DNA of 32,000 nucleotides, taken from assembly GCF_000020025.1 (NCBI RefSeq), contig NC_010630.1, positions 91,029 to 123,028 of the forward strand, given 5' to 3'. The stretch is from Nostoc punctiforme PCC 73102. Lineage in GTDB: Bacteria; Cyanobacteriota; Cyanobacteriia; Cyanobacteriales; Nostocaceae. The number at the start of each line of letters is the position of its first letter. The stretch's first letter is position 1. Below are positions 16,119 through 32,000 of the stretch, piece by piece. The notes below the pieces were generated by a model. The model was not told where the DNA came from and ran no database searches. It saw nothing but the letters and a program-made list of their open reading frames with translations. Both the position numbers and the translations under genes were made by a program.

Positions 16119-16159
16119 ACTTTTTCTGTGTCACTGAGAATCAGTGACACAGAAAAAGT
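16119..16159 (-). terminator. Perfect 19-bp stem with a 3-nt loop; a candidate intrinsic terminator on the minus strand
   Basis: ACTTTTTCTGTGTCACTGA-GAA-TCAGTGACACAGAAAAAGT, every position paired by hand. On the minus strand it is followed by TTTTA. It lies 57 nt downstream of the stop of the 16216..16437 fragment. The stem is AT-rich (7 GC of 19). Confidence 0.4.
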
Positions 16160-16215
16160 AAAACTACTGTCCTACAAAGCTTTCAGCGTCAGCTTGAGCG
16201 TTGCCATAAAAATGG

Positions 16216-16437: not shown

Positions 16438-16526
16438 GTTTTTGCACCATTATTTCGCTACAAGGTCAAGATTACAGGATTTCCGCTCTTCTCTAGTAAG
16501 TTTTGCCACGCTAGGATTTTACCGCT

Positions 16527-18036
16527 TTGTATCCCACTCATGGTCAACCAACAGTTAGACCTTGGCGACTGGCGTTAATCTGTGTGCTGCAATTTATTGA
16601 AGATTTGCCAGATCGACAAGCTGCCGAAGCTGTCCGCAGTAGAATTGATTGGAAATATGTTTTGGGGTTGGAACTGACTGATTCAGGTTTTGATTTTTCT
16701 GTGTTGTGTGAATTTCGCGCCCGATTGATGGTAGGTGGTGCAGAACAACAACTGCTAGACACGTTACTGAGGCAATTTAGAGAGCGCGGATGGCTCAAAG
16801 AAAGAGGAAAACAGCGCACTGACTCCACCCATGTGCTGGCTGCTATCCGTAACTTGAACCGACTCGAAGGGGTAGGTGAAACTCTACGTGCAGCCCTCAA
16901 TTCACTAGCTACAGTCGCGCCCGATTGGTTGCGTTCATGGGTACCTTCAGAATGGTACGAGCGTTACGGTCGGGCTGTAGAAGAATATCGCTTACCCAAG
17001 GGCATTGCCGCACGCACCTGAATATGCCGAGATGATTGGCACAGATGGTATGCAGTTACTGATAGCTGTATGGGCAGAAACTGCCCCAGATTGGCTTGCT
17101 CATGTGCCCATCGTCGAAATTCTGCGACAGACTTGGGTACATCAATATTATGTGGAGAATGACCAAGTAAGATTGCGGGCTGCCAGTGACTTAGCCCCTT
17201 CTGGTAGTCGTTTTGACTCTCCTTATGACATCGATGCTCGCTTTGGTAATAAACGCAGTGTGACTTGGACTGGGTATAAAGTGCATCTGACCGAAACTTG
17301 TGATGAGAACCAAGTCCATTTAATTACTCATGCCATTACCACCCAAGCTCAGGTTTCAGATGTTACACAAACTGCATCTATTCACGAGGCATTGGCTGCC
17401 AAAGACCTGCTCCCCAGTCAACACATTGTTGATGCTGGCTATGTCGATAGTAATCTTATCGTCACTAGCCGTAAACAGTATGGAATAGATTTAGTCGGCC
17501 CAGTCCGCCCGAATGTTAGTTGGCAAGCTAAAACGCCTGGCGGTTATGATATCAGCCAGTTTACAGTGAGCTGGAATACAAAACGGGTGACTTGTCCTCA
17601 AGGTAAAAAAAGTACCAAAAAGTGGGTTCCGACTCAGGACAAGTGGGGCAATGCAGTGATTAACGTGAGATTCCCCCGCAAAACTTGCCGACTTTGCAAC
17701 GCCCGTGCTTTATGCACCCGCTCGAAAACTGAGCCAAGAGAATTGACACTGCGCCCAAAGGCAGAATACCTTGCATTGCAAACCGTGCGACAACAACAGC
17801 TTTCCACGGATTGGAAAAAACTCTATGACGCAAGAGCAGGAGTTGAAGGAACGTTGTCTCAAGGAATTGGCAGCTTGGGGCTGCGACAAGCTCGCTACAT
17901 TGGTTTGGTTAAAGTTCGGCTCCAGCACTTGCTGACTGCCGTGGCTCTTAATGTGGTGCGGATGGTTGCTTGGTTACATGGCCGAACCCATGCGAAAACC
18001 AGAATTTCTCGATTTGCTGCTTTAGCTCCAGTGTGA
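16527..18036 (+). pseudogene. IS1182-family (IS5-like DDE) transposase, 5'-truncated and frameshifted
   Basis: ORF 16527..17021 (LYPTHGQPTVRPWRLALICVLQFIEDLPDRQAAEAVRSRIDWKYVLGLELTD...QRTDSTHVLA) and ORF 17005..18036 are consecutive parts of one IS1182-type protein split by a frameshift near 17005-17021. Full-length homologues, as I recall them, carry about 50 more N-terminal residues. In-frame stops lie just upstream at ~16491-16514. Confidence 0.8.
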
Positions 18037-18084
18037 AGCAAGAGCTTTCAATCCAGATTACCAATAATATCTATTAAGATCATC

Positions 18085-18156
18085 CTTCTCCATGTAATAC
18101 ACAGATAACCCTCTGCTACCTAATGAGCTAAAATAACGGTGTAATACATGGAGAAG
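18085..18156. promoter_or_regulatory. 18-bp inverted repeat (17/18) bracketing the upstream region and RBS of ORF 18162
   Basis: CTTCTCCATGTAATACAC (18085-18102) matches the reverse complement of GTGTAATACATGGAGAAG (18139-18156). The spacer is 36 nt. The right arm contains GGAG 8 nt upstream of the ATG at 18162. This could be an operator pair or an RBS-sequestering hairpin. Confidence 0.5.
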
Positions 18157-18161
18157 CGGTT

Positions 18162-18659
18162 ATGAAACGTGATATCCAGGGGAAGTTTGCCCTGAAAAAT
18201 GAAGATTATCGTTTAGTTCGCTCGTTAAGACTAACTGATTCCACGTGGGTAGCTTTGGGCATCACATCTGAATGCTTGGGTCTTACTAGGGCTGACTATT
18301 TAGAGCAGATCATTCGTGAAAAAGCTCTGCCAAGTACGGTTTCTCCAAGTAATACACGGGAGAAAGATTTCCTTTTTCCATGTATTACAAGGCAAAATAC
18401 GGATTCACCACCGCGTAATACACGGTTTCAGGAGGAAATAGAAGTACTCCTTGCTGAAATACAAAATCTCAGTCAAAAGAATGCTGCATTGATGCAACGA
18501 ACAGCAATTGCTTTCTCCCAAATAGAACTTGAGCTTTTACGCGATCGCATTTTGCTTGATTTGAAATTAGGCAAGCAAGCCCCTGGATACAAAGCTGTTC
18601 AAAAAGCTCTCAATCGTTTCATCGCTGAATTGACTTACCCAAACACAAGCGTTTTTTGA
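18162..18659 (+). CDS. Hypothetical protein with a ribbon-helix-helix-like N-terminus and a coiled-coil-like C-terminus
   Basis: 165-aa ORF with GGAG 8 nt upstream. RSLRLTDSTWVALGITSECLGLTRADYLEQII fits a strand-helix-helix (RHH/CopG-like) pattern, and the C-terminal half is heptad-like. The central part (PSNTREKDFLFPCITRQNTDSPPRNTRF) is encoded by three copies of the GTAATACAC DNA motif, so part of the ORF may be fortuitous. Confidence 0.55.
   Translation: MKRDIQGKFALKNEDYRLVRSLRLTDSTWVALGITSECLGLTRADYLEQIIREKALPSTVSPSNTREKDFLFPCITRQNTDSPPRNTRFQEEIEVLLAEIQNLSQKNAALMQRTAIAFSQIELELLRDRILLDLKLGKQAPGYKAVQKALNRFIAELTYPNTSVF
18348..18425 (+). repeat. Three further copies of the TGTAATACAC-type 12-mer inside ORF 18162..18659
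   Basis: AGTAATACACGG at 18348-18359, TGTATTACAAGG at 18381-18392 and CGTAATACACGG at 18414-18425. Spacing is 33 and 33 nt. The first copy is embedded in TTCTCCAAGTAATACAC, which matches 18086-18102 at 16/17. Confidence 0.6.
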
Positions 18660-18848
18660 CTTCGCCAACAGCATCATCCTCTTAAGTTGGCGTAAAAAAA
18701 ACCAAAGTATGTAAAGATAAGTAAATACATAAAATGCATCTACCGAGGTTACTAAGACATGGGCGCTCGTTAAAAAGGGAACTACAGTACAGAACGTGTA
18801 AAATTTGAATCTAATCGTTCTGGTCAAACTTTTGTTACATAGTTATAA

Positions 18849-19058
18849 ATTTTCCCGCCCACTTACTTAGAGCAAGAAGGGTCACTCGCTCTACCACAGA
18901 GCGAATTTGGTTTGGATGTGATTGCTTATATAGGAGCGTTACGATACCAGGAACATAGAAGTGTTCCCCAAATACACACTCACCTTGAATTAAAGGGTAT
19001 ATGTATAAGTCAAAGAACGGTCACGCACCTAATTGACAGATATGACGAATTACTTTCT
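18849..19058 (+). pseudogene. Internal fragment of a transposase gene (same family as 16216..16437), interrupted at 19058 by the Tn7-like element
   Basis: The open frame reads IFPPTYLEQEGSLALPQSEFGLDVIAYIGALRYQEHRSVPQIHTHLELKGICISQRTVTHLIDRYDELLS. It stops making sense exactly at the TGT terminus (19059) and resumes in frame at 31981 (LWLKDH...). There is a stop codon immediately upstream at 18846-18848 and no N-terminal part. Confidence 0.6.
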
Positions 19059-19076
19059 TGTGATTTGAATCATAAA
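19059..19076 (+). repeat. Outer element left terminal repeat
   Basis: TGTGATTTGAATCATAAA. It contains the TTTGAATCATAA motif, which recurs inverted at the other end. Confidence 0.85.
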
Positions 19077-19094
19077 ATAAACTTTTAGCTCACA

Positions 19095-19132
19095 ATATGC
19101 TTCAGAAAGCATTAACCATTTTATGCTTCAAA
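19095..19132. repeat. Two subterminal copies of the end motif in the outer left end
   Basis: ATATGCTTCAGA at 19095-19106 and TTATGCTTCAAA at 19121-19132. Both fit TTATG(A/C)TTCA(A/G)A. They are candidate TnsB-binding sites. Confidence 0.5.
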
Positions 19133-19157
19133 AATCGGCGAAAAAGTAGAAGACATG

Positions 19158-19174
19158 TTCCATGTAATACACAG
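19158..19174 (+). repeat. Sixth copy of the TCCATGTAATACACAG motif, inside the outer element's left end
   Basis: TTCCATGTAATACACAG (19158-19174). Its last 16 nt (TCCATGTAATACACAG, 19159-19174) are identical to 18089-18104. Confidence 0.6.
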
Positions 19175-19258
19175 TTAAGGGGTTAGATTTGGCAAAGCTG
19201 TCATGAAGTACAAACTAAACTGTTTAGTTTAAATATCAAGCATCACCATCTAAAGCCC

Positions 19259-19672
19259 TTAAATAGATACAGTTAAGATTTTAAACAACCAGTCTTCTAG
19301 AGGTACGCCGAATTCTTCTGGAATCTGTTGTTGTATCTTGGTGTATTGAACCTGATTCCAATATGCAGGATTAAATATACTGTGCGGAACTTCTACATCA
19401 ACTAATTGTGGATTTTCCATAACACGACACCACATTCTGGCTCGATAATCAATTGTGAGGTTCCCAAAAGGTAACTCAATCCAATAATGCGGTGACACTT
19501 GACCATGCCCAACCCATCGGAACGAACCGTACCAAATTAGATGTTCAATACCCTCATTAAATAAAATAGTAGAGAGAACTTTGCTATGCCCATCACACTC
19601 CGTTGGGGAATTATTCCAAACACCTAATTCTTCACGTAGCTGCTCAATAAAATCATTATTCATTCCAAGCAT
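19259..19672 (-). CDS. Hypothetical small protein with a papain/transglutaminase-like Cys-His-Asp pattern
   Basis: 137-aa ORF with GGAG 9 nt upstream of the ATG. The pattern TECDGHSKVLSTIL...GIEH...SPHYWIEL...LTIDY fits the order and spacing of the C..., HxWxE and D motifs of transglutaminase-like cysteine peptidase folds. This rests on the motifs alone. Confidence 0.55.
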   Translation of the reverse strand: MLGMNNDFIEQLREELGVWNNSPTECDGHSKVLSTILFNEGIEHLIWYGSFRWVGHGQVSPHYWIELPFGNLTIDYRARMWCRVMENPQLVDVEVPHSIFNPAYWNQVQYTKIQQQIPEEFGVPLEDWLFKILTVSI

Positions 19673-19784
19673 ATTTATTCTCCAATAGTACTTTCAATTT
19701 GCGAACTGTATTGATTGTCATATCAGCTTGTGTTGCTGTTTGACGCAATAATAATTTCTCATCAAGTGCTGCAATTACTCCTTG

Positions 19785-20753
19785 TTAAGCACGTTCTTCT
19801 TCAATTTCTTCAATTAACTGCTCAATCCAACTAGGTTTACCTGCTAGAATATCTACTTCAAACTCTGATAACTGCTTTTTTTTCATCCGCCGCAAATCTC
19901 GCAATGCAGCAGTCGCATCTTCCGGGTTGTCAAATTTGTAATATTCAGTCAAACTCCCAATAGAGCAATTGTAGTCAGCATATCTATATTTAAAATATTT
20001 CTCTACATTCCCTCGATGCGACCAGTGTCCTAAAACTTTGATTGAAACATGAGAAAAATGTTTGACCAAATCAGTTTGAACTTCAGCTACGCGTGCTTGT
20101 ATTTCCCGCCTAGTCACACCAATTTTATAAAATGTTTCTTTATCAGTATCAATTTGAAGGTAATACAGAGTATTCGATAAAATTTTCTTTAATTCGGCGC
20201 GATATATTTGCAGATCCCAAAGACATTCATGAAAATTTGATGCATCATCAAGATAAGCAACTTGAACTTTTTTCTCTAACTGCTGCAACTTCTCCCACAA
20301 TATTGATTCTTGCACTTGGTTGAACAGCATTAACGATAATGCACCAACAGGTATCTTACCTAGCTTGGTAAACTGGTATTCTCCATAGAGACGGTATTCA
20401 TTGTACTCTAACAATTTTTCTTTAATAAAAATTGAGTTAATTTTACTCTCATAAATACCTTTGTTCTTCCATCCGTATCGATTCCAAAGGGTCTTGATCT
20501 GTTGGAGTTCTTTACCTGTTAGACATATATTGAAGTTATTGTATAAAGGTAAAGTAGGAATTTCACGTTCACTGCGATTAGCTACTTCTCTGCAAGTAAA
20601 GTTAGTGTGTGCGAAGTGGTGTTCTTTACGATTTCCCTTTTTCGCCGTCAACTCACCACCACAGTAGGGACACTTTAACTGAGTTCTCCCTCGTAGAACA
20701 TCTTCAATCGGTACTAAGATCAAATCTAGGTCAACACCATACCTGAGCCACAT
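19785..20753 (-). CDS. Two-domain protein: CoiA-like Zn-ribbon N-terminus plus a T5orf172 (GIY-YIG-superfamily-like) C-terminal domain
   Basis: 322-aa ORF. The N-terminus LKCPYCGGELTAKKGNRKEHHFAH matches the CoiA-family signature C-x2-C...K.G....HFAH. The C-terminus FYKIGVTRREIQARVAEVQ...LGHW...GNVEKYFKYRY...EYYKF resembles the T5orf172/MUG113 pattern. Confidence 0.7.
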   Translation of the reverse strand: MWLRYGVDLDLILVPIEDVLRGRTQLKCPYCGGELTAKKGNRKEHHFAHTNFTCREVANRSEREIPTLPLYNNFNICLTGKELQQIKTLWNRYGWKNKGIYESKINSIFIKEKLLEYNEYRLYGEYQFTKLGKIPVGALSLMLFNQVQESILWEKLQQLEKKVQVAYLDDASNFHECLWDLQIYRAELKKILSNTLYYLQIDTDKETFYKIGVTRREIQARVAEVQTDLVKHFSHVSIKVLGHWSHRGNVEKYFKYRYADYNCSIGSLTEYYKFDNPEDATAALRDLRRMKKKQLSEFEVDILAGKPSWIEQLIEEIEEERA

Positions 20754-21065
20754 TTGGGAATACCTTTTATTTGATACACCAGGAAAGGTAGGCTTGAAAA
20801 GCGCGTAATGATATTTTACTGTATCAAAAAAAGCTGCTGTAAAATAAATAATTCTTAAGGAATTTATCTTAAAAAGAAATACGTTTAAATTCCCAAATTA
20901 ACATTGTCCAGTCATAACCATCAGAATCAACTACACTAATGTACCATCTAAAAGAGGCTGTATACCTCTTTAATGCCATTGACTTAACTAACATATTCTC
21001 TTCATCAGTAGCGTCGGAGCTATGACCTGCTTGAATTAAATCACCAACTCTAGTAATTTCATATA

Positions 21066-21344
21066 TTAATCAAGTGTTGAATAATCAGAAAGTTCTGTTG
21101 TTTCTAACTCACTTAAAAAGCCAGTTAATGCAAATGGACATTTACAACTAAGCTCTTTTTCTAAAAAATCAGCATTTAAGTGATATTCAAAACACACAGT
21201 ATCAAAAATATCCTCAGTAGTTAATTCTAGATTTTCATCTAATTCCACTATTCGTGCTTCTATTAAGTAAATTAGCTCTTTACTAGAGAAGTAAGTTTTG
21301 ATTGTAGAAGTAATTATTAGATGATTTATTTTAGTAACTATCAT
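21066..21344 (-). CDS. Hypothetical acidic small protein
   Basis: 92-aa ORF co-directional with tnsC, 31 nt downstream of the 138-aa ORF. I recognise no motif. It may be part of a longer frameshifted gene (see findings). Confidence 0.4.
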   Translation of the reverse strand: MIVTKINHLIITSTIKTYFSSKELIYLIEARIVELDENLELTTEDIFDTVCFEYHLNADFLEKELSCKCPFALTGFLSELETTELSDYSTLD

Positions 21345-21375
21345 TTTAACTCTCCGATGATTTTAAACATAATCT

Positions 21376-21792
21376 TCAAATTGGTAAATGCTGTTGTAAG
21401 ATTGGGTGCAAAGAAGCAGCAATTGCCTCAAACTTATCACCATCTGGATAGGGACGAAGAATTTCCTCACCGTCTTCGTTCAACCACTCTTGTCGTATTG
21501 GAGTGTACTCAAGCGATAGAATTGCAGTTCTCCACCAGCCAGATAATGCTAAATGTTCCCCAGACCAAAATAGCCGGAAATCAACCTTCTTATTTCGATA
21601 AACTTCACTAATAGGATTAGAATAAGGACGGTTTTTAGGATCAAAAGTCTCAGTAAAATAGCCTTGAAAATCAATTACTAAAAAATCTTTTTTAATTTCT
21701 GCTGTTAATTTAAAACGAGAGTGTAGATAATGAGCAGATAAAATTTTAGCGGCTGCTAATTCAAATTCTATAGGTAAAGTAGATAAACTCAT
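21376..21792 (-). CDS. Hypothetical protein in the position usually occupied by tniQ
   Basis: 138-aa ORF 90 nt downstream of tnsC on the same strand. It has no Cys-rich TniQ-like zinc motif and no family I recognise. Confidence 0.55.
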   Translation of the reverse strand: MSLSTLPIEFELAAAKILSAHYLHSRFKLTAEIKKDFLVIDFQGYFTETFDPKNRPYSNPISEVYRNKKVDFRLFWSGEHLALSGWWRTAILSLEYTPIRQEWLNEDGEEILRPYPDGDKFEAIAASLHPILQQHLPI

Positions 21793-21882
21793 TAATTAAT
21801 AATTTCCTTGAATACCGATGCGAACATTATTGAAAAATTGATACCCTTGATAAAAACTGTTTACTACTGAATTTTTTGATGT

Positions 21883-23355
21883 TCACTCAAGTCCAACAGT
21901 GTCTCGTTTGGGTTTGCGTTGCCCAACACGTTGGGAAGACTTTTTAGGCATTTTCTGTTTAGTTGCAGCTTCATCATCAATTGTCTTCTGTTCTATTATG
22001 GGACTGACAGTAATATTTGTTTCTAGTGGTGTCTCACTAATTGAAGAATCAGTTTGTTTTGTCTTCTTGCGAGTTTGTTTCTTCTTGGGGACTGGCTCTA
22101 TAGAAGTTTTGCCTGGTGTAGTAGAAGGCGTTTCATCTATCGTAGAACTGACGGGCTTTTTACGAGTCCGTTTCGCTTGAGATGGTGGTTTGTCAGATTT
22201 CGGAGGCGATGCTACCACATCTGCTGCGCCCTTTGATAAATCCACCGCAGTTTTTGGTACAGATGTAGAACCCATTCCCATCTGTAGCAAATGCCACAAA
22301 TGTTCACGGCGACTTTCCATATAAGAGAGTTTTTGTTCTCCCTCAGTGGTATCCAATGCCATACGTTCACATTGGGCTAGTGTTAGGGTATGTTCATGCA
22401 ATCTTTCTAAACTAAGAGTGTCGTGGCCATCATGTGCTACCGCTGCCACAGCCCGTATAAGCCAGTCTTTGAGTACCCCAACACAACCAATGCAACGTTC
22501 ATAGAAATAAAGCCAATGCTGCATTAGCTCTCTTACATCAACATTCATCGGTACTTGCATCAGGAGTGCCAATAATGCGGCTTGAAAATCCTGACGGTCA
22601 AGTTCATTTTGATACAGATAACGCGGAAAATGGATATCTAGTCCCCGCCGGGATGCTTGACCACTTAAATTGCGGAAATTTAGCAGTTCGTAAGTCCCAA
22701 TGAGAATGTGTAGCACACCCGTAACGTTGGTCATAGACTTAATCCAGTCCAACTGGTCTAAAAGCTTACCAGCACTTGCACCAGTCCCAATCTTCATTAA
22801 GTGCTGTGCTTCGTCCAAAATCACCGCCCGCACTCCGCGTTTGGTCATCGCTTCTTCTAATGCGTGGCGCAGTTCGGGAGAATCATTAAACTGCGCTGTT
22901 TTAGTCCGGGAGCGTCCTTTCTTCTCCCAAGTCTGCTCCGCATCAATATCTATCAGCATCCGCCGCTCATAGAATGGTTCTCCCAAAAGCTTTAGCGCAG
23001 TGCGGTAATAATCTGCGCGATTAAACACCCCACCGTCAGATGGTCGTGTTTCTAACAGCAATAACGGCATCAGGGGCTGACTGCCGTTACGATAGCTTAA
23101 GGAATTGGATACACCTGGTAACTGTTCGGGTACATTCTCATTTAACCGTTTAGCAATCTGCCGAATCATCGTTGTTTTACCCACACCGCTTGGCCCATAA
23201 ACCAACACATGAGCAAATCCGGCGGGTTCTCGAATCGCACGCATCAACAACATATCTACCCGTGCTAACTGGGGATGTAAAACTGCATACTCCTTAAACT
23301 GAGTTAGTTTGAGGTGCATTTGGTCGTTTTGATTAAGGCTCTCCAAATTGTCCAT
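21883..23355 (-). CDS. tnsC: TnsC/TniB-like AAA+ ATPase with a long low-complexity C-terminal extension
   Basis: 490-aa ORF. Walker A is VYGPSGVGKTT and Walker B is VILDEAQHL. The start overlaps the tnsAB stop (TAATG). The core is co-linear with the inner element's TnsC (…LDEAQHL…IGTYELLN…CVG(V/L)LK(D/N)WL…). Residues ~360-475 are K/P/T/S-rich. The terminal motif is RVGQRKPKRDTVG. Confidence 0.9.
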   Translation of the reverse strand: MDNLESLNQNDQMHLKLTQFKEYAVLHPQLARVDMLLMRAIREPAGFAHVLVYGPSGVGKTTMIRQIAKRLNENVPEQLPGVSNSLSYRNGSQPLMPLLLLETRPSDGGVFNRADYYRTALKLLGEPFYERRMLIDIDAEQTWEKKGRSRTKTAQFNDSPELRHALEEAMTKRGVRAVILDEAQHLMKIGTGASAGKLLDQLDWIKSMTNVTGVLHILIGTYELLNFRNLSGQASRRGLDIHFPRYLYQNELDRQDFQAALLALLMQVPMNVDVRELMQHWLYFYERCIGCVGVLKDWLIRAVAAVAHDGHDTLSLERLHEHTLTLAQCERMALDTTEGEQKLSYMESRREHLWHLLQMGMGSTSVPKTAVDLSKGAADVVASPPKSDKPPSQAKRTRKKPVSSTIDETPSTTPGKTSIEPVPKKKQTRKKTKQTDSSISETPLETNITVSPIIEQKTIDDEAATKQKMPKKSSQRVGQRKPKRDTVGLE

Positions 23356-26072
23356 TAACGGTATTCCCCTAGTATCGGCAGTCGTGTGAGATCCAACAGT
23401 TCAATGTTGTTTTGCAGTGCTGGCAATTGTTCGTCATCTTGACTGTGTGCTTCTATCTCCGGCTCAAGAGTGCTGACTGGGGGAAACTGGGGTACACCTT
23501 CCTTATTGAGTGTTAAATTCTCCAGTACCCCAACAGCTTCCAAATCCCGTAATCGTTGCATGAGTAAGATTTCATGTTCTTGCACCGCCGCGATGAAGTC
23601 TGCAAGGCGTTTGGCAGAGATATTTGTACTCACAGCATTACGCTTATCTTGCTGTCTGATTTCTTGGGCAGCTAATAGCACTTCTTTCTCCGTGCGTCCG
23701 GCAAAGGTGCTGTAATACTGGGAGATACATTTGACCCATCTTCCCTCTAAGTACGCATAAGCTACACCCATATCAAAAGGGTCATAGCGTACACTGACTT
23801 TGGTCTTTTCGACAACCGGATTGCGGAAAGCATCGTTCCAGTAATAAAGATAATTGACTTTAATTCCCTGTCCCGGCTGAACTTTAGCGTTGCCTTTGGG
23901 TGTACTAGGGCGTGTTGCCATGAGAAAGTCTTCGTTGTATGCAATACGTCGGTGTTCCCTCTCCCCTGTGGCAGCCATTGCGTCAGTATAAACTTGTAAT
24001 GGTGTCTCACCCAAGGAATCATGTACGCTTGTGTCATAAATGGTGTATGCCCACTCACTCAGGTAGGTATGTAAAGAAGCTAATGTCCAAACGGCAAGTT
24101 GTTTGGGGTCAACAGAAGAAGTGAGTTGACGCGGTTGTTTACTGGCTTGGGTGTTGCCCAGTAAGTTAAAGATAAATTCAGTATTAGTTGTTCCGAATAA
24201 TCGCTCAACTACTGAGCCAAAACGAGGTTTTGCACCAGGACGAGTCTTTTTGATGCAGTGGTAGCGTGCTAATAAGGTATCAAAGTAAACGCTATGAAAT
24301 TCCTTACCGCCATCTACAACTACAGATTGGGGAAAACGACCAAAACGCTGGACGCACAACCGTAGTGCCATCATGCAAGACCTGTAACTGGGTGGGTCAA
24401 AGGTGAGATAAACTGCTAAGATGCGTCGGGAGTAGGCATCAATCAGTAATGTCAGCCAAGGTCGTCCTAAGTTCCGACCAGTTACTTGGGAGCGTAATTC
24501 GATATCGAGTTGGGTGTGGTCAAGATGACAGATAGCAAAAGGTCTGTCTCCATGCCGGGGTGTAGTTCTAGCTAGTTCTAAGACAATCGGTTCTGTTGCG
24601 TATGCGGCTTTTGCTCCCTGACGTTTTAAAGTCTGCTCATGGATTGGACGCTTTTTTAGCCGAGTATAAAATGTGCGCTGACTCAGTGGAGGGATGTTGG
24701 CTGTACAGCAGGCTCTTGTATATGCCCGATAAACGGAAGCGGCTGGAGCTTGCCTTGGTGTCTCGAAGTGTTCTGTAATAAATTTATCTAGTAAAACGCT
24801 GGTATCTGTTGGTGCTTTGGATAGGCGATTTCCTCTATTATTTGTACGTGGGAGCAAACCAACATAACCGCAACCAAAAGTGGCTTCCGCTTCCCGAAAC
24901 TGTTTTACCCATCGAGATAAGGTGCTTTGAGGTATGTCCTTCCCTATATCTGTGTGATGCTGGAAATATGCTTGTACTAAATGAAATCTGCGATTGGCTC
25001 TTTGTAGATCCGCAGGCGAGGCGGCATCCATCAATTCACGCACTCCCTCATTGATGGTTGTTTGTTTTTCTGAGGTGAGAATATTGATAGTGCTACTGTC
25101 GAATAATTGCAGAAAAAATGCTGTGGGCAATTGCATTGGTTGCCCGACTGCGGGTAGCAGTGTGGTTGTAGTCTCGCCCAAGTTAACTAAAGTCCAAAGT
25201 TGTGAGTCCCAGACTAATAAGGTATTAGGCAAGAGTGTTGTGGGTGAGGTGATTTTTCGATGATCCCCAGTTGTCCCTATGGCTAAATATGTATGAGCAG
25301 TATGAGTTTGCTCATCTGCCCATAGCTGAACTCGCCAATGTTCCACTAGGGGAACTGCATACAAGTCCACGTAGAGTTGCTCTGTGGCAATCATGGCGTA
25401 AATATCGTTAGCACGCACTCCGGGAATGGTTGCAAGTGTGGCGGCTATAGTTATTCCTGGACTGGCTTTAACTGAAGACAGTATTTGTTCTGTAATGGAA
25501 AGGGGGACATTGGCGGTGAACCTAAAGTAGTCTTCTAAAAACATTAGGTTCTGGGTGAATATGGGATTTAGTTCGGTATCGGTGCGAACATGATATTTGA
25601 GTCCATAAGATTCGGCGTAAGCTTCTCCTGGTGGGCAATGCCAATGACCAGTTTCAGTTTTTTGGTAGCGTGAAGGGTATTTTTGGGCTAGTCGTTTTAA
25701 TTCGGTTTCGGTTTTCCATTCTTCCCAAGCTGCACCTGTCGTCCGCAGTACGAAGAAGTCTGGGGTATGGTAATGACCTATATTTCGTCCGTTTTGGTTT
25801 TGGTACTGAATTTTAAATGGAGGTGGTTGGTCGTAGAACTCTAACACCTGTGGGTCGTGTTCCATTTGGTAAATCGCCCATAGTTCTACTGTGTGGCTCT
25901 CAAATTGAATGGTTTGACCCATTTTGCGGCTAGGGTAAACTCCACTGACGTTCTTAGCGCGTCCTTGTACTCTGCGAGAAGGTGGGGCAGCGCGAATTGC
26001 GGCGATTATTAAGAGTATTTGTGCCGTTAGTTGCTGTTGCTTACACCAATGGTCAAATTCATCGTCTGTCAT
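23355..26072 (-). CDS. tnsB: TnsA-TnsB fusion transposase: N-terminal TnsA-like endonuclease module plus a DDE/rve TnsB-type transposase
   Basis: 905-aa ORF. The N-terminus QFESHTVEL...DPQVLEFYDQPPPFKIQY...YHTPDFFVLR...WEEWKTETEL gives E58/D105/K120. This pattern and spacing resemble Tn7 TnsA E63/D114/K132. The DDE core is HLDHTQLD, LLIDAYSRRILA and VVDGGKEFHS. There is no separate tnsA gene in the element. Confidence 0.85.
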   Translation of the reverse strand: MTDDEFDHWCKQQQLTAQILLIIAAIRAAPPSRRVQGRAKNVSGVYPSRKMGQTIQFESHTVELWAIYQMEHDPQVLEFYDQPPPFKIQYQNQNGRNIGHYHTPDFFVLRTTGAAWEEWKTETELKRLAQKYPSRYQKTETGHWHCPPGEAYAESYGLKYHVRTDTELNPIFTQNLMFLEDYFRFTANVPLSITEQILSSVKASPGITIAATLATIPGVRANDIYAMIATEQLYVDLYAVPLVEHWRVQLWADEQTHTAHTYLAIGTTGDHRKITSPTTLLPNTLLVWDSQLWTLVNLGETTTTLLPAVGQPMQLPTAFFLQLFDSSTINILTSEKQTTINEGVRELMDAASPADLQRANRRFHLVQAYFQHHTDIGKDIPQSTLSRWVKQFREAEATFGCGYVGLLPRTNNRGNRLSKAPTDTSVLLDKFITEHFETPRQAPAASVYRAYTRACCTANIPPLSQRTFYTRLKKRPIHEQTLKRQGAKAAYATEPIVLELARTTPRHGDRPFAICHLDHTQLDIELRSQVTGRNLGRPWLTLLIDAYSRRILAVYLTFDPPSYRSCMMALRLCVQRFGRFPQSVVVDGGKEFHSVYFDTLLARYHCIKKTRPGAKPRFGSVVERLFGTTNTEFIFNLLGNTQASKQPRQLTSSVDPKQLAVWTLASLHTYLSEWAYTIYDTSVHDSLGETPLQVYTDAMAATGEREHRRIAYNEDFLMATRPSTPKGNAKVQPGQGIKVNYLYYWNDAFRNPVVEKTKVSVRYDPFDMGVAYAYLEGRWVKCISQYYSTFAGRTEKEVLLAAQEIRQQDKRNAVSTNISAKRLADFIAAVQEHEILLMQRLRDLEAVGVLENLTLNKEGVPQFPPVSTLEPEIEAHSQDDEQLPALQNNIELLDLTRLPILGEYR

Positions 26073-26149
26073 GAGAATGCTTCTCTTTGCCAGGAGGCGG
26101 TTTTAGGCTTTCAGTACGCAATACCAAACTACAGAGGCATGGTTTTAAG

Positions 26150-26311
26150 TGAAGCATATCTTGGAATTTTGAACCATATTTTGAATTGAAAGTTTATAAG
26201 TGGGCAATTTTTTCAAAGATTTTTTGTGCAAGTTTCATTCAATTGTGTTTTTTCAACTCATTTTTTAATTATGCTTCAGAATTTTAACTCTCTCTCATGA
26301 TTTGATTCAAA
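26150..26311. repeat. Subterminal end-motif copies of the outer element's right end, between the tnsAB start and the nested insertion
   Basis: In the same orientation as the terminal site: TTATGCTTCAGA (26269-26280) and TTTGATTCAAA (26301-26311). In the opposite orientation: TGAAGCATAT (26150-26159) and TTTGAACCATA (26168-26178). Confidence 0.5.
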
Positions 26312-26357
26312 GTTTTATGTTGGGATTGGTGAGAAAGTCCGAAATTGCGTTAACTCT

Positions 26358-26408
26358 TGTCACTTAAAGGATATTGTGGCCGTTTTTAAACCATAAAGTG
26401 GCCGCAGT
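26358..26408 (+). repeat. Inner element terminal IR, tnsAB-proximal (right-end type)
   Basis: It contains two GTGGCCG-centred sub-repeats (ATTGTGGCCGTTTTT and AAAGTGGCCGCAGT), which are candidate TnsB-binding sites. Confidence 0.9.
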
Positions 26409-26518
26409 CATCTGAACTGGTAAGTATAAATATTTATATCAATAAAAGACTGTTTAACTGGCGAAAGCCTAGATTTGTGGTAAGAGCTTGTTGCGGCTTT
26501 AAAAGCTTGGGGGCCAAT

Positions 26519-29128
26519 ATGTTGAGCGACCAAGAGTTTAATGATTGGTGTCGCGGCGTAAATTTACCACAAGAGGCTAGGCAATTAATTTCCCAAATCC
26601 GTGCCTCTGAACCAATTCGGCGAGTCAAAAGCAGTGGTATAAATGTCCGGGGCGACTACGCCAGTCGCAAAATGGGAAAAACTATTCAATTTGAGTCCCA
26701 TAAAATTGAATTGCCAGGTGTAGAGGAGTACGAAGAAGACGCAGATGTACTCGAATACTACGACCAAGCATATCAAATTACTCTAGAATTCCCCTCAAGC
26801 AGTGGGGAAATAATCAAAGCTTCGCATATACCAGACTTTTTCGTAATTCGGAAGCGGAGTGCAGGTTTTGAAGAGTGGAAACCAGAATCAAGATTAGAAA
26901 AATTAGCAGCTAAACAATCACAACGTTATATGCGTTCAGAAGATGGGCAGTGGTTAAACCTGCCAGCAGTTGCTTATGCAGAAAAATTAGGACTGTATTA
27001 CCGAATTCGGTTAGATACAGAAATTGATTGGATTAAATACAGAAATCGACTATTTCTCAAAGCCTATACTACTGAAGATTACCAAATTGACCCAGAAATA
27101 GCTGAAAATTTGGTGAAGTTAATTAGCTTAAATCCGGGCATAAGTTATTGGGAAATGATTCATACTCAACAGAGCAATCCTGATGACATAAATGCTTTAA
27201 TAGCTACAAAAAAAATTTACATTAATTTGAGTGCCGCACCCTTAGCAGAGCCAGAAAAAGTACAGCTTTTCCGTGACCAAGAAATCGCGGTAGCTTATGT
27301 ACAAATGATAAAATCGCAACCGAATAATGGAACGATTCTGAATATTTTAGATGTTAAACCCAATCAACTGGAACCTAAAACTCATAATCAAGTAAAAATG
27401 TCTCCAAAAGCAATGGAGCGTTTTTTGAGAGCTAGTCCTGAAGACTTGGCAGAAGCTAACCGAAGATATGAAGTAATTGAACCTTATCTTAATGACAGTT
27501 ATAGAGATAAAGAAACTGTTCCACAACGTACTATTCGCAGATGGAAGGCTAAGTTTATAGCAGCACAAAAGGCGTACAAATGTGGTTATATTGGGCTGCT
27601 AAATAACTCTAATGCTAGAGGCAATCGCTTACCCAGAATTTCTCAATCGTCTCAAGATTTCATTGACAAAATAATTGAAGAATATTATGAAACTTTTCAA
27701 CAAAGAAGCAAACTAGCTGTTTATGGAATTCTAGCAAGAGAATGGGAGAAAGCAGGTCTAACAGATAAGCTGCCTAGCTACGCTACATTTTGTTCTAGAA
27801 TTCAACATCGTTCTGGTTATAGGCAAACAAAAAAACGTAAGGGAAACAGAGCAGCTTATCAACAATCTTTATTGTATTGGGAGTTGAAATTAACCACACC
27901 ATGTCATGGCGACCGTCCATTTGAGATAGCACACATTGACCATACGCAACTGGATATTGAGTTAGTATGCTCCCGAACAGGTTATCTTCTTGGTAGACCT
28001 TGGGCAACTCTGTTAATCGATGCTTACAGCCGACGTATTCTCGCAGTTTACCTAACTTTTGACGAGCCAAGCTACCGTAGTTGCATGATGGTATTAAGAA
28101 TCTGCGTACAGCGATTTGAGAAATTACCAGAGACAATAGTTGTTGACGGTGGGACAGAATTTAGTAGTACATACTTTGAGACCTTGTTAGCGGCTTTTGA
28201 ATGTACCAAAAAGCAGCGACCAGCTGCGAAAGCCAGATTTGGTTCAATTATTGAACGTATTTTTGGAACTACAAATACAGAGTTTTTTTATAATCTTAGA
28301 GGCAACACTCAAATTACTAAGAATGTCCGCCAAGTCACGAAATCAAATAATCCCAAAAATCAAGCTGTTTGGACACTAGATCAACTCTACGAAAACTTTT
28401 GTTCATATTGTTACGAATTCTATGATTGCAGAGAACATCCAACATTAGGACAAAGCCCACGTCAAACTTTTATGTCAGGGCTAAATTCAAGTGGTTATCG
28501 CCCTCAGAAACAGATTATTTATGATGATAATTTTAAGATTTTTACCTTACCTTCTACACCTAAAGGAACTGCAAAAGTTCAACCAAGTAGAGGCGTGAAA
28601 ATTAATTATCTCTACTATTGGTCAATTGATGATTCGTTCATAAGACCAGAAATTGAAGGAACTAATGTACCTATTCGTTACGACCCTTTTGATATGGGGA
28701 CTGCTTATGCTTACGTTAAGGGACGTTGGATACGCTGTATTTCTGAACATTACAAATCCTTCCAAAATCGTTCCGAAAAAGAAGTGAACATAGCCAGCAC
28801 ACAATTACGTCGAAAAAGGCAGAAACACGCTCAAAGAATTACTCTATCTGCCCAAGAAAAAGCTACATATTTAGAAGGAACTGAAGCCCAAGAAACTTTG
28901 TTATTACAACGCTTACATGATTTAGCACAACAAGATATTTGGGTTTTAATTGAAAAAAGCTCAGTTATTGAAAGTAAATTAAGTAAACACAATTATTCAG
29001 CTAATGTTCAAGATGTAGATAAAAATATTTTGGCAGGTTCAGAAAGCATTAAAAAGCCAAAATCATCAGCAAAAAAATTAATAGATTTAACCAAAATAGA
29101 AGCTTACAATACAGAGGAGCTATGGTAA
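26519..29128 (+). CDS. tnsB: TnsA-TnsB fusion transposase of the inner element
   Basis: The ORF track starts at GTG 26477. ATG 26519 gives MLSDQEFNDWC..., which is co-linear with the outer protein's MTDDEFDHWC..., so I prefer it (869 aa). TnsA-like module: QFESHKIEL...DADVLEYYDQ...HIPDFFVIR...FEEWKPESRL (E59/D106/K121). DDE core: HIDHTQLD, LLIDAYSRRILA, VVDGGTEFSS. By eye, long identical runs are shared with the outer protein across the catalytic core. Confidence 0.88.
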   Translation: MLSDQEFNDWCRGVNLPQEARQLISQIRASEPIRRVKSSGINVRGDYASRKMGKTIQFESHKIELPGVEEYEEDADVLEYYDQAYQITLEFPSSSGEIIKASHIPDFFVIRKRSAGFEEWKPESRLEKLAAKQSQRYMRSEDGQWLNLPAVAYAEKLGLYYRIRLDTEIDWIKYRNRLFLKAYTTEDYQIDPEIAENLVKLISLNPGISYWEMIHTQQSNPDDINALIATKKIYINLSAAPLAEPEKVQLFRDQEIAVAYVQMIKSQPNNGTILNILDVKPNQLEPKTHNQVKMSPKAMERFLRASPEDLAEANRRYEVIEPYLNDSYRDKETVPQRTIRRWKAKFIAAQKAYKCGYIGLLNNSNARGNRLPRISQSSQDFIDKIIEEYYETFQQRSKLAVYGILAREWEKAGLTDKLPSYATFCSRIQHRSGYRQTKKRKGNRAAYQQSLLYWELKLTTPCHGDRPFEIAHIDHTQLDIELVCSRTGYLLGRPWATLLIDAYSRRILAVYLTFDEPSYRSCMMVLRICVQRFEKLPETIVVDGGTEFSSTYFETLLAAFECTKKQRPAAKARFGSIIERIFGTTNTEFFYNLRGNTQITKNVRQVTKSNNPKNQAVWTLDQLYENFCSYCYEFYDCREHPTLGQSPRQTFMSGLNSSGYRPQKQIIYDDNFKIFTLPSTPKGTAKVQPSRGVKINYLYYWSIDDSFIRPEIEGTNVPIRYDPFDMGTAYAYVKGRWIRCISEHYKSFQNRSEKEVNIASTQLRRKRQKHAQRITLSAQEKATYLEGTEAQETLLLQRLHDLAQQDIWVLIEKSSVIESKLSKHNYSANVQDVDKNILAGSESIKKPKSSAKKLIDLTKIEAYNTEELW

Positions 29129-30261
29129 AAATTCAGTCGCACTCTTTTCCAGAAGAACTTCTCTTACAGCCGAACGAAATTAAAACTGATTATTTCAAAA
29201 GTATCACTATTCCACATCAAAGGCTCAAACAAGCCTTAGATACTTTATTAATTAATATTCTGGAGCCAGCTGACACTTTAGTATTTTTAGTTTTTGGTGT
29301 GACTGGTGTAGGAAAAACAACCTTACGCTTGCGTCTGGAAAATCTGCTAAATTACGAATTTCTCCCCTCATTACGCCAAAATCCTGGTCAAATTGCTGTT
29401 GCTGGTATTGAAGCTATTCCAACAGAACAAGGAAAGTTTAGCTATAAAGATTATTACACTCGCGCCCTAGAATCCCTTCAGGAAGTTTTGATTGAATACA
29501 AAATTGATTATGAAATTCCTCACGGTGAGGTAAAGGATTTGGGGTTGCTAAATCGGGCTTACCGCCAAGATTCGCCCGCATTACGCCGAGCAATGGAAAA
29601 AGCATTTCGTTATCGTCAGGTAAAAGCTTTTACTGTAGACGAGGCACAGCATTTATTTATGATGGCAGGCGGACACCAGATGTTACAGCAAATGAACTGG
29701 ATTAAGTCTATTGCTAATCTTACTGGTACAGTACATATTTTATTTGGAACTTATGAACTGCTTAACTGTCCTACCTTGAATGGGCAAATAGGGCGGCGTA
29801 GCGAAGATATTCACCTGTTACCTTACCAAGCTGATAACCCAGAAGATATTGCTGAATTTATTAGAGTAATTAGAACTTTTCAACGCCACATTCCGCTTGT
29901 ACAAGAACCAAAATTAGAACAACACTATGAGTATCTTTTTTCTGGCTCAGTTGGTTGTGTGGGGCTATTGAAGAATTGGTTAACTCGTTCTTTGAGAGTT
30001 GCCTATTCTGAAGAAGCTCGGACTCTTAATAGCAAACATCTTAAATTAGGTGCTTTTTCTGCATCTCGTATCAACAAAATTAAGGAAGAAGCACAACAGG
30101 GATTTAAACGCTTTCAAGAAGAATCCAGTTTTTTTGAGCGGCAATATTCAACAGAACATGGAATAAAAATGCCAGCCAAAAATTCCCTACTCAAAAAAGG
30201 TCGTGTTGGACAAAGAAAACCTAAAAGAGATGATGTAGGGGTAAATTCAGATGATGACTAA
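29122..30261 (+). CDS. tnsC: TnsC/TniB-like AAA+ ATPase
   Basis: 379-aa ORF. Walker A is VFGVTGVGKTT and Walker B is FTVDEAQHL. There is an ATGGTAA overlap with the tnsAB stop. The C-terminal motif RVGQRKPKRDDVG is shared with the outer TnsC. Confidence 0.9.
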   Translation: MVKIQSHSFPEELLLQPNEIKTDYFKSITIPHQRLKQALDTLLINILEPADTLVFLVFGVTGVGKTTLRLRLENLLNYEFLPSLRQNPGQIAVAGIEAIPTEQGKFSYKDYYTRALESLQEVLIEYKIDYEIPHGEVKDLGLLNRAYRQDSPALRRAMEKAFRYRQVKAFTVDEAQHLFMMAGGHQMLQQMNWIKSIANLTGTVHILFGTYELLNCPTLNGQIGRRSEDIHLLPYQADNPEDIAEFIRVIRTFQRHIPLVQEPKLEQHYEYLFSGSVGCVGLLKNWLTRSLRVAYSEEARTLNSKHLKLGAFSASRINKIKEEAQQGFKRFQEESSFFERQYSTEHGIKMPAKNSLLKKGRVGQRKPKRDDVGVNSDDD

Positions 30262-31837
30262 CATGGCGGTTAACGATGAATTGTGGCTCAAAGACCCAGA
30301 ATTTACTCCCAGTCCTAGCCGGTTGTTTCATCTGGAACCGATTGGACTTGGTACTTGTTATGTTGAAAGTCTGACTAGCTATGTTGCTCGTCTAGCCGCA
30401 GCTCATAGCGTATTGCCTGGAACTTTATTGGCTAGAGAGATAAAACCAATAGTTGGGCATAACCATACTACCAATCCCTTGAATTCTAAAAGTATCGTAA
30501 GTTTGTATGGACAAGCTTCTGTAAAAGCTTTAAACGGAACACAAATTGGAGCTAAACAACTGGTTTTTGCTCTAGAAATATTGACAAAACGTACTGACTT
30601 ACAGTTTTTGACAATGCTACCTTGGGCAAAAGTCTTCCCAGTTTTGGGATTGCTCAAGCATTCTCATGCTTGGTGTCCTTATTGCTATCAAGACTGGTTA
30701 AATAATCAACAAGTCATTTATTCACCTCTGCTGTGGGCTTTGAAACCAGCTAACATTTGTCCCATCCATTATCGATTTTTAGAATCAAAATGTCCTCACT
30801 GTGACCTTGAATTTTTACACCTGTGGCATAACTCACGACCTGGATTTTGTCTGAAATGTGGTGGTTGGTTGGGGATGAACTATGAAGTATCTTTGCCAGA
30901 TAAGAGATTGTTCGAGGAGATACCCAATTTACAGCAAGAGATTTGGATAGTTAAGACTTTAGGAGATTTAATTGCTCAAGCTCCTGAATTTCCTTGTCCA
31001 CCTCCAAGAGAGACTATTAAAACAATCCTAGAAGCTTACGTCTATCAATATACTCAAGGTAATGTTTCCGCTTTTGGTCGTTGGCTTGGGTTATCGAGAT
31101 ATGAAATTCTACATTGGTATTCAGGTGTAGCCATCCCAAATTTAGATAAACTTTTGAAAATCTGCTACGCCTTATCAACTAATCTTGTCGATTTTCTTCA
31201 ACTTAAAATACTACCTCTTACTCTTAAGCAGCTAGTTTCTCTACCTGCTCCTAAACAGAAAAAATTATCATCACAGTCTGCTTTAGTTACTTCAAATAGT
31301 AGTCCTAAGTGCGAACGAGTTATTCAGGCGATGCAACTAGCTCAAGAAGAAGAACCACCTCCTTCTTTAACTCAATTAGCTGTTCGTTTAGGATTCAAAA
31401 CTCCTAGTAGTTTAACTGCTTGCTCAAAATCTTTATCAGCATCTTTGGCTACTAGATATAGTGAATATCAACAGCAGCTAAGATTTTTACACATCAGAGA
31501 CATACTTGAATTAGCTTTGTTTAGCGACGAGTATCCACCACCTTCTCTAAGAAAAATAGCTAAGAGAACTGGTATTGGTTTGGCTACTTTCTACCACTAT
31601 TGCCCTATTGTGTGCCATGCTATTTCTTTACGCTATAAAGATTACCGCAAATTCGTCCATAAACTAGCTATTGAGCAAGGCTGTCGAGAAGTACGCCAAC
31701 TCGCTTCAGTACTTCATGCACAAGGCATTACCCCTACTGCTAAAAATCTCAGAAAATTTATGCCTCATCCCTCTTTGCTGTGGCAGGCTGAGGTAATTGA
31801 TGTTTTAAGGCAGATAAGACTGGATCTTTCACAGTAA
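30251..31837 (+). CDS. tniQ: Large TniQ/TnsD-like target-selector protein
   Basis: 528-aa ORF overlapping the tnsC end by 11 nt. TniQ-type N-terminus: LFHLEPIGLGTCYVESLTSYVARLAAAHSV. Cys-rich zinc module: WCPYCYQDW...CPIHYRFL...CPHCDLEF...CLKCGGW. C-terminal HTH-like segments include an internal repeat: PPPSLTQLAVRLGF and PPPSLRKIAKRTGI. Confidence 0.85.
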   Translation: MMTNMAVNDELWLKDPEFTPSPSRLFHLEPIGLGTCYVESLTSYVARLAAAHSVLPGTLLAREIKPIVGHNHTTNPLNSKSIVSLYGQASVKALNGTQIGAKQLVFALEILTKRTDLQFLTMLPWAKVFPVLGLLKHSHAWCPYCYQDWLNNQQVIYSPLLWALKPANICPIHYRFLESKCPHCDLEFLHLWHNSRPGFCLKCGGWLGMNYEVSLPDKRLFEEIPNLQQEIWIVKTLGDLIAQAPEFPCPPPRETIKTILEAYVYQYTQGNVSAFGRWLGLSRYEILHWYSGVAIPNLDKLLKICYALSTNLVDFLQLKILPLTLKQLVSLPAPKQKKLSSQSALVTSNSSPKCERVIQAMQLAQEEEPPPSLTQLAVRLGFKTPSSLTACSKSLSASLATRYSEYQQQLRFLHIRDILELALFSDEYPPPSLRKIAKRTGIGLATFYHYCPIVCHAISLRYKDYRKFVHKLAIEQGCREVRQLASVLHAQGITPTAKNLRKFMPHPSLLWQAEVIDVLRQIRLDLSQ

Positions 31838-31871
31838 ATCTTATTTATTCGCCTTTCTCTAAGGTTTTACT

Positions 31872-31922
31872 ACTGCGGCCACTTTATGCTTTAAAAACGG
31901 CCACAATATCCTTTAAGTGACA
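31872..31922 (-). repeat. Inner element terminal IR, tniQ-proximal (left-end type)
   Basis: Its reverse complement equals 26358-26408 except for one base. Confidence 0.9.
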
Positions 31923-31934
31923 ACTCTTCTCGAT

Positions 31935-31975
31935 TTATGATTCAAAATTTTTCCCACATTATGATTCAAAGCACA
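31935..31975 (-). repeat. Terminal 41 bp of the outer element's right end, now separated from the rest of that end by the nested element
   Basis: TTATGATTCAAA occurs at 31935-31946 and 31959-31970 (24-bp period). It ends ...GCACA at 31975, the inverted counterpart of 19059-19076. Confidence 0.85.
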
Positions 31976-31980
31976 TTTCT

Positions 31981-32000
31981 TTATGGCTAAAAGACCATAA
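31981..32000 (+). pseudogene. Continuation of the transposase fragment interrupted at 19058
   Basis: After the TTTCT duplication the frame continues TTA TGG CTA AAA GAC CAT (LWLKDH) with no stop up to the window edge. Confidence 0.5.

Follow-up and report, generated by a model that had tools for sequence, protein, structure and literature searches.

How did one Tn7-like transposon come to lie inside the end of another, and is its position there an accident? The question is raised by a 32,000-nucleotide stretch of Nostoc punctiforme PCC 73102 DNA (contig NC_010630.1, positions 91,029 to 123,028; hereafter the window, coordinates being counted from its first letter), in which an outer element at 19059-31975 contains an inner element at 26358-31922. 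The evidence supports the conclusion that the locus consists of two different Tn7-like elements, nested, each of which arrived by clean transposition; the nesting itself is solid. The nesting is probably not a chance capture, since the family to which the inner element belongs lands repeatedly at the same register in other Tn7-like ends.

The boundaries of the outer element as originally predicted (19059-31975, flanked by TTTCT) matched base for base on recomputation. The target-site duplication (TSD) occupies 19054-19058 and 31976-31980, and a repeat search returned the arms of a 17-bp inverted repeat (IR) with one mismatch (16/17), TGTGATTTGAATCATAA at 19059-19075 and TTATGATTCAAAGCACA at 31959-31975. 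Such an IR is by itself not significant in 32 kb, the repeat listing containing many comparable pairs; hence the outer boundaries are secured by the TSD, by the placement of the terminal repeats, by the restored reading frame of the host gene and by a related copy in Trichormus variabilis (see below). Matches to the outer repeat TTTGAATCATAA, allowing two mismatches or fewer, number seven in the whole window, and all 7/7 fall within the two proposed outer ends. The tnsAB-distal end (19059-19140, plus strand) starts with the tip TGTGATTTGAATCATAA and carries repeats in both orientations (19064-19075, plus; 19121-19132, minus); its first 33 nt are identical in the T. variabilis copy. The tnsAB-proximal end is split in two. 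Its inner portion, from repeat 3 onward (26073-26357, minus strand; matches at 26300-26311, 26269-26280 and 26168-26179), is separated from the outer tip by the inner element. The severed tip (31923-31975, minus strand) consists of the second ACTCT copy and 48 nt with repeats 1 and 2, ending in ...TTATGATTCAAAGCACA; two of the seven repeat matches (31935-31946 and 31959-31970) lie in this 53-nt piece past the inner element. The outer element without its guest measures 7,347 bp.

The inner element (26358-31922; 5,565 bp tip to tip) is bounded by a 51-bp terminal IR with one mismatch and by the TSD ACTCT (26353-26357 and 31923-31927), again in base-for-base agreement with the original prediction. 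The tnsAB-proximal IR (TGTCACTTAAAGG..., 26358-26408, plus strand) is complementary at 50/51 positions to the tnsAB-distal IR (31872-31922, minus strand). The repeat search reports this IR as 52 nt at 98%; at 51 bp it is far beyond chance. Each IR holds two GTGGCCG-type repeats, putative binding sites for the transposase, and tips of the inner type follow the pattern TGTCACTTAAAGGATA..GTGGCCG. Counting inward from the outer tip, the left TSD copy covers nt 49-53. The inner element, 48 bp inside that tip, separates repeat 2 of the outer tnsAB-proximal end from repeat 3.

The gene that the outer element interrupts encodes the ISNCY-type DDE transposase of an insertion sequence (IS). In-silico removal of 19059-31980 joins its 5' part (18660-19058, plus strand) to the continuation at 31981-32000. 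The result is a single continuous frame, in which ...RYDELLS runs into LWLKDH...; the restored protein gives weak matches to IS66/IS481/IS256 transposases. The restored 401-nt junction finds uninterrupted end-to-end matches on plasmids of Nostoc and Calothrix, more than 10 in number, with identities of 93.8-97.5%. These uninterrupted versions, several copies among them, are annotated as ISNCY-family or unnamed transposases, and the outer element therefore sits in an IS. An independent copy of the outer family, 90% identical and with the same two tips, is found on plasmid A of T. variabilis ATCC 29413 (NC_007410 75343-81837), placed between ilvD and a LysR gene and flanked by the TSD CTTGC. This copy also supplies the empty site of the inner element: it reads ...GCGTTAACTCTTTCTCGATT... 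/ ...AAAATTGCGTTAACTCTTTCTCGATTTATGG... straight through the position of the inner insertion, the counterpart of the 31923-31975 piece being directly contiguous with the counterpart of 26357, and the inner portion at 26073-26357 is colinear with this uninterrupted end.

Copies of the inner type with differing flanks were found in Nostoc sp. ChiQUE01b, TH1S01 and P3034 (TniQ identities of 97%, 94% and 97%, respectively) and on plasmid p057_G of Nostoc sp. C057 (98.5% TniQ identity, truncated by an IS5). Independent copies are represented by loci L018, L019 and L021, which have different flanks, and occur on several metagenome contigs; L019, with sequence resembling the interior of another transposon (element X, see below) on both sides, is possibly a chimeric assembly of a metagenome-assembled genome (MAG) and was counted with caution. 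One scan of genome contigs yielded five loci, mostly short, and a scan of viral contigs gave no match. Logan contigs that stop exactly at the inner tips were considered as proof of multiple copies and rejected as evidence, because a 51-bp IR alone breaks assembly graphs built with k=31.

The locus could in principle be a single element with compound ends, or rearrangement debris that mimics nesting. Two observations lend themselves to such a view, namely that composite loci elsewhere show invaders between two short terminal pieces without TSDs and that the 17-bp outer IR is not, taken by itself, compelling in statistical terms. However, both TSDs are perfect, each element is found singly elsewhere with the same termini, and in-silico excision of either regenerates sequences that are uninterrupted in other genomes, so that this explanation is hardly credible. 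The claim of clean transposition made in the original prediction is borne out by the intact TSDs, the empty sites and the independent copies; the possibility that the junctions are part of a conserved non-mobile locus falls, empty-site alleles and independent copies having been found for both elements.

Both elements show Tn7-like features: a TnsB with rve and Mu C-terminal domains, a fused TnsA, an AAA+ TnsC, TGT...ACA tips, a 5-bp TSD and arrays of repeats at the ends. The TnsAB proteins are 43% identical over 850 residues, from residue 16 on and including the PDFFV/EEWK region, and the TnsC proteins 33% identical, so that the two elements represent related but distinct lineages of one family, as had been proposed. 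The same proposal held their end sequences to be unrelated. The ends do differ but are not wholly unrelated: both start with TGT, and the outer repeat core, TTTGAATCATAA, agrees with the inner one, TTTAAACCATAA, at 10/12 positions. A short basic C-terminal tail, RVGQRKPKRD-T/D-VG, is common to both TnsC proteins (21883-23355 and 29122-30261) and might allow cross-talk between the two machineries.

The gene content of the inner element is limited to tnsAB, tnsC and tniQ, with zero cargo. The TnsA-TnsB fusion (26519-29128, plus strand) has 869 aa when started at ATG 26519; the longest open reading frame (ORF) has 883 aa and starts at GTG 26477. Domains rve and Mu-transpos_C are present; for the TnsA part, PF08722 gives no match in the 883-aa ORF and a weak match in the 869-aa gene call. 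TnsC (379 aa; 29122-30261, plus strand) matches AAA_22 and TniB. The third gene (30251-31837, plus strand) encodes a 528-aa TniQ (PF06527), a TnsD-like target selector that is a full-length homologue (E 1e-79) of the TnsD of the type I-B2 element of the Peltigera cyanobiont (PDB 8v32_J): the N-terminal 320 aa and the C-terminal 100 aa align, and residues 322-411 form an insertion of about 90 aa. The element has neither CRISPR-Cas nor a second TniQ, and a profile search found no resolvase gene in it. No transfer RNA (tRNA) gene was found in the window, and the flanks of the inner element are transposon-end sequence, not a CRISPR array.

The position that the inner element occupies recurs in other residents. 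In L018 the resident is a Tn5541-like end (TGTGATTTGAACGATAA) and the junction lies 52 nt from its tip; the flank of 52-55 nt is found uninterrupted, at 100% identity, on many Nostoc plasmids. On p057_G of strain C057 the invaded sequence is the R end of element X, and the junction falls at X nt 48/49, as checked against the uninterrupted p057_A copy. L031 holds a third kind of tip, entered at 53 nt, and in L040 an outer-type end approximately 65-70% identical to that of the window is interrupted at the identical junction, again by comparison with an uninterrupted reference. Various resident tips in L032, L043, L044 and L046 are entered at 50-53 nt by miniature derivatives of the inner type, about 200 bp long. 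Element X itself (L028 5953-11308, on Nostoc sp. C057 p057_A) is a four-gene Tn7-like transposon encoding TnsA, TnsB, TnsC and a short TniQ; it has tips TGTGACTTGAAGAAG... and the TSD TGAAG, splits a plasmid gene for a DnaB-like helicase and is present on three C057 plasmids.

The recurrence extends to a sister family with the same three genes, TniQ proteins 46-49% identical to the inner TniQ, and tips that start with TGTGACTTAAAG (TGTGACTTAAAG..TTGCCGC). Two of its members, L053 and L054, adjoin the interior of an outer-type end at the junction used in the window. Others lie 33 nt inside another tip (L052), 76 and 29 nt inside the tips of another family (L049), or 52 and 51 nt inside tips of another family (L061). 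In L057 the resident is an inner-type miniature, and the insertion, flanked by a perfect TSD (ACGCG), lies 75 nt inside its end; L047 is an ordinary chromosomal insertion with the TSD TTAAG. When inner-type and sister-family copies are taken together, at least one flank lies inside another Tn7-like end in 14 of the 17 full-length copies. The insertion distances cluster at 29-33, 50-53 and 75-76 nt, that is, in steps of about two helical turns, in line with the spacing of the repeats, and the elements insert where the contiguous block of terminal repeats has its inner edge.

A tip motif, TGT[GC][ACT][CT]T, provides a statistical measure of this preference. Among the 29 distinct flanks next to inner-type tips, 8 have the motif at offset 50-53; the remaining offsets, out to 130 nt, together yield it only three times. 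Since its background at any position in the same loci is 0.34%, P equals 7e-14, or 6e-10 when no more than six independent target families are counted. Targeting of transposon ends is well supported statistically, while its mechanism is only inferred.

Simpler rules for the choice of site were considered and rejected. A fixed attachment site for the inner element does not agree with flanks that vary between copies, nor with the lack of a tRNA gene in the window; homing to outer-type R ends only is at odds with the use of other target families and of the distal end as well. A single orientation rule, with the tnsAB-distal end facing the resident tip, fits the window, L018, L031, L037 and L061 and fails for C057/X, L019 and L054. 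Each of the candidate motifs fits some targets only: GAAATTG, some 12 nt away from the TSD, a resemblance to the T-arm of tRNA (GGATTCGAACC versus ATGATTCAAAGC) and TTGGAC beside the junction.

The arrangement in the window is very probably the product of two successive cut-and-paste insertions by two different Tn7-family machines, with the landing site reflecting a habit of the invading family. A member of the Tn5541 branch (see below) would have inserted into the ISNCY-type transposase gene, duplicating TTTCT; the 5,565-bp cargo-less element would then have entered the outer tnsAB-proximal end, splitting it between TnsB repeats 2 and 3 and duplicating ACTCT. The habit would consist in insertion, by the inner type and its sister family, at the inner edge of a terminal repeat block, mostly at 50-53 nt and less often at about 30 or 76. 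From established Tn7 biology, heterologous ends would confer no target immunity, and because its ends differ, the resident outer element would give the newcomer none.

It seems somewhat more probable than otherwise that the inner type and its sister family are "end hunters", minimal Tn7-like transposons that select the tips of other Tn7-like elements and insert about 30, 53 or 76 nt in. The most likely reader, as we infer, is the TnsD-like TniQ, whose target would have shifted from tRNA-like motifs to the tips of transposons; it would read the resident tip and then recruit TnsC and TnsAB. In the window, the outer tip ATGATTCAAAGCACA lies at 39-53 bp past the inner tnsAB-distal end, a distance equal to that found in relatives that target tRNA genes or CRISPR repeats. 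By analogy with the "res hunters" of the Tn5053 type, the pay-off is likely to be an insertion site that does no harm and lies on DNA able to move in its own right.

Several observations weigh against this interpretation. Three copies lie outside any recognisable end (L021, L034 and L047), L021 being at an ordinary chromosomal site. The invader may face the resident tip in either orientation (C057/X and L054 versus the window), which simple one-sided recognition of the TnsD type does not predict, and no single sequence motif common to all targets was extracted. Matching TSDs are absent in several composite loci (L032, L046, L049, L061 and L053); some of these cases could be blurred by later recombination or by assembly artefacts in MAG contigs. 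Several loci derive from MAGs or metagenomes, where chimerism across a 51-bp IR is possible. Events in homologous ends (window, L040 and L046) could share ancestry. The order of events could also differ, the inner element having entered the outer one at an earlier location and the composite having then moved as a unit.

Some of these observations would be expected if nesting were due to chance, the inner element inserting without target preference and its presence in other transposons reflecting no more than the survival of harmless insertions. Copies at ordinary chromosomal sites (L021 and L047) and the finding of both orientations are compatible with such a scheme, as is the entry for Tn5469, an element of like gene architecture, as showing "only untargeted transposition" (PMC11406308 Table 1; PMC9881144). 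Survivorship, however, enriches insertions in junk DNA generally; it cannot yield a fixed register of 50-53 nt from unrelated tips (8/29 against 0.34%), nor can it explain that two invader families have returned to a single junction in outer-type ends of diverged sequence. Chance nesting is therefore considered unlikely. A stronger competitor, if still a doubtful one, replaces reading by TniQ with capture of the invader at the end by a transposase or a nucleoprotein complex. In one possible version, the invader's TnsAB binds weakly to the related repeats of the resident end; in another, the resident transposase, bound to two terminal repeats, forms a complex or bend that places the invader's TnsC-TnsAB at the edge of the block. 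Capture would better account for the two orientations and for the phasing of about 22 nt, the distance steps (29-33, 50-53, 75-76) being in register with the repeat spacing at the inner edge of the block; the 10/12 likeness of the repeat cores and the C-terminal tail shared by the two TnsC proteins also speak for it. There are precedents: insertion sequences of the IS30/IS911 type insert beside or into resident terminal IRs, and Tn7 TnsABC is attracted to distorted DNA. The IS30/IS911-type elements have a single transposase, without an AAA+ regulator or TniQ, and are not known to use a fixed offset of about 50 bp. On the other hand, the repeats of element X (GAAATTGGACAGG) are not obviously like those of the inner element, and TnsB bound to a target in Tn7 repels insertion (target immunity) rather than attracting it. 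Reading of the tip by TniQ remains the preferred mechanism.

No description of the insertion of such elements into the ends of other transposons was found in the searchable literature, an absence that is not proof of novelty. The closest architecture is that of Tn5469 from Fremyella diplosiphon, which carries TnsAB, TnsC and one TniQ, has no cargo and is described as capable of "only untargeted transposition" (PMC9881144, PMC11406308). The inner element, compared with it by architecture, shares the cargo-less TnsAB/TnsC/single-TniQ organization and an insertion-sequence-like behaviour; unlike Tn5469 as described, its family has a strong positional preference inside other Tn7-like ends. Minimal TnsAB-TnsC-TnsD elements that target CRISPR arrays recognize a motif 40-50 bp past one end and have chromosomal as well as plasmid targets (Chacon Machado & Peters 2025; PMC11837452). 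Re-derivation of the A. franciscana example, which served to calibrate the geometry, gave the TSD CCTTC and an intact downstream repeat starting 13 bp past the tnsAB-distal end; the TniQ of this element is about 37% identical to the inner TniQ. These elements resemble the inner one in being cargo-less and cyanobacterial, in belonging to the same clade and in having a TnsD retargeted to a short repeated sequence. They differ in that the target of the inner element is a transposon end, its orientation is not fixed and its TniQ is longer (528 aa) and not C-terminally shortened.

The TnsD structure mentioned above (PDB 8v32) comes from a type I-B2 CRISPR-associated transposon (CAST) of the Peltigera membranacea cyanobiont, which uses a tRNA attachment site (PMC12585508); the inner element differs from it in having no tRNA gene in the window, no CRISPR-Cas and no second TniQ, and in the TniQ insertion of about 90 aa. 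A functional analogy can be drawn with the "res hunters" Tn5053/Tn402, single-TniQ elements of the Tn7 superfamily that land in a functional site of other mobile elements and so obtain both a safe location and a vehicle (PMC11406308). Tn5053, however, is without TnsA, uses the TniR resolvase and targets a res site occupied by resolvase, whereas the inner element has a TnsA domain and no resolvase.

Tn7-family elements are studied, and engineered as CAST tools, for the precision of their target choice, and the selectors known so far read glmS, tRNA genes, comM, res sites, CRISPR repeats or matches to a guide RNA. Taken alone, the nested pair adds one more case to element types already known; the candidate for a new class of Tn7 target lies in the phased insertion, seen repeatedly, into the ends of other transposons. 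A lineage that reads the ends of its own family members would, if confirmed, represent transposon-on-transposon parasitism within one superfamily. Classic target immunity would then be inverted, TnsB-bound ends repelling in one setting and perhaps attracting in another. The cargo-less element would gain a landing site that is harmless, mobile and often plasmid-borne, and could disable or hollow out the resident, some invaders being flanked by two resident tips of about 50 nt and nothing else. The published view of the Tn5469-type architecture as "untargeted" is revised by the positional preference of the inner family. For annotation, such insertions account for the frequent interrupted or doubled ends of cyanobacterial Tn7-like elements, which confound automatic boundary calling.

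The outer element belongs to the already published Tn5541 branch of cyanobacterial elements. Members of this branch, so far found on plasmids only, are described as combining a TnsAB fusion with a C-terminally extended TnsC and as lacking both TniQ and cargo (Hsieh & Peters 2022; PMC9881144). It shares with the branch the TnsAB fusion, the C-terminally longer TnsC and the lack of TniQ, and differs in carrying a small and variable cargo that includes a GIY-YIG protein. The fusion transposase (905 aa; 23355-26072, minus strand) matches PF08722 (E 7e-11), PF08721, rve and Mu-transpos_C, and the exact protein recurs in many public assemblies. The AAA+ ATPase TnsC (490 aa; 21883-23355, minus strand), also identified by AAA_22 and TniB matches, has an additional low-complexity segment of about 120 aa just ahead of its C-terminal tail, RVGQRKPKRDxVG. 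No TniQ was found inside the outer boundaries or in the T. variabilis copy. Directly after tnsC lies a 138-aa ORF (21376-21792, minus strand), with an ORF of equal size at the same position in the T. variabilis copy, followed by a 92-aa ORF (21066-21344, minus strand) without family match. The cargo ORFs, on the same strand, are one of 322 aa (19785-20753), which combines a GIY-YIG-type nuclease domain (MUG113/T5orf172) with a CoiA_N-like zinc finger, and one of 137 aa (19259-19672) without family match. The cargo, between tnsC and the distal end, totals about 2.8 kb; that of the T. variabilis copy differs, and PADLOC recognized no defence family in the outer cargo.

At the DNA level the outer element is 77-90% identical to plasmid copies in Tolypothrix, Nostoc and Trichormus, and 32 plasmid records hold relatives; the 77%-identical Tolypothrix copies are presumably Tn5541 itself. 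A two-gene version of the family, about 4.7 kb long and encoding TnsAB and TnsC only, is present on plasmid pNsp_a of Nostoc sp. ATCC 53789 (L027 645-5045) and on at least five plasmids of that strain in all (pNsp_a and four others). The inner 190 bp or so of the outer tnsAB-proximal end (window 26168-26357) also occur alone and gene-free, at 83-88% identity, on many Nostoc, Calothrix, Aulosira and Tolypothrix plasmids; they represent either isolated remnants of an outer-family end or miniature elements of that family.

Miniature inner-type elements, non-coding and resembling miniature inverted-repeat transposable elements, measure approximately 190-240 bp (L032 1367-1558, L044 7001-7212, L046 7001-7202 and L045 ~7003-7243); they sit on Nostoc and Aulosira plasmids and in metagenomes. 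Some invaders and miniatures are flanked on both sides by outward-pointing end pieces, 29-76 nt each, of another Tn7-like family (L032 1314-1610, L046 6948-7255, L049 2684-8517 and L061 106-5735). The two pieces total 103-106 nt and the inner junctions have no matching 5-bp TSD; the L032 composite as a whole has its own TSD, GTCTG. Possibly both ends of the resident had been hit and recombination between the invader copies then removed its interior. In L021 (993-1060) an inner-type copy has its end 5 bp beyond the stop codon of a gene encoding a kinase-GGDEF-EAL protein. Within that gene, from 35 nt out, the sequence TGTAACCTTGAGCATAA resembles an inner-type tip (13/17) and is directed outward from the element; the resemblance may be coincidental, or a pseudo-end may have attracted the insertion here. 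In L040 (4237-8039 and 8254-12805) an inner-type variant is without tnsC, TnsAB being directly followed by a 317-aa TniQ remnant, and is adjoined by a gene set like that of a cyclic-oligonucleotide-based anti-phage signalling system (DncV-like nucleotidyltransferase, E2/ThiF, JAB and SAVED).

Upstream of the nested elements, the segment of the window at 15700-18660 is a transposon graveyard. It contains an IS1182-family transposase in two ORFs (16527-17021 and 17005-18036), which appears to interrupt a transposase remnant with a zinc-finger N-terminus (16216-16437, minus strand), and an ISL3-like fragment near 15828-15904. Further upstream, a type I polyketide synthase (1853 aa) adjoins a protein resembling non-ribosomal peptide synthetases (1801 aa) at 4826-15789 (minus strand); the pair constitutes a hybrid natural-product cluster, with no close match among plasmids.

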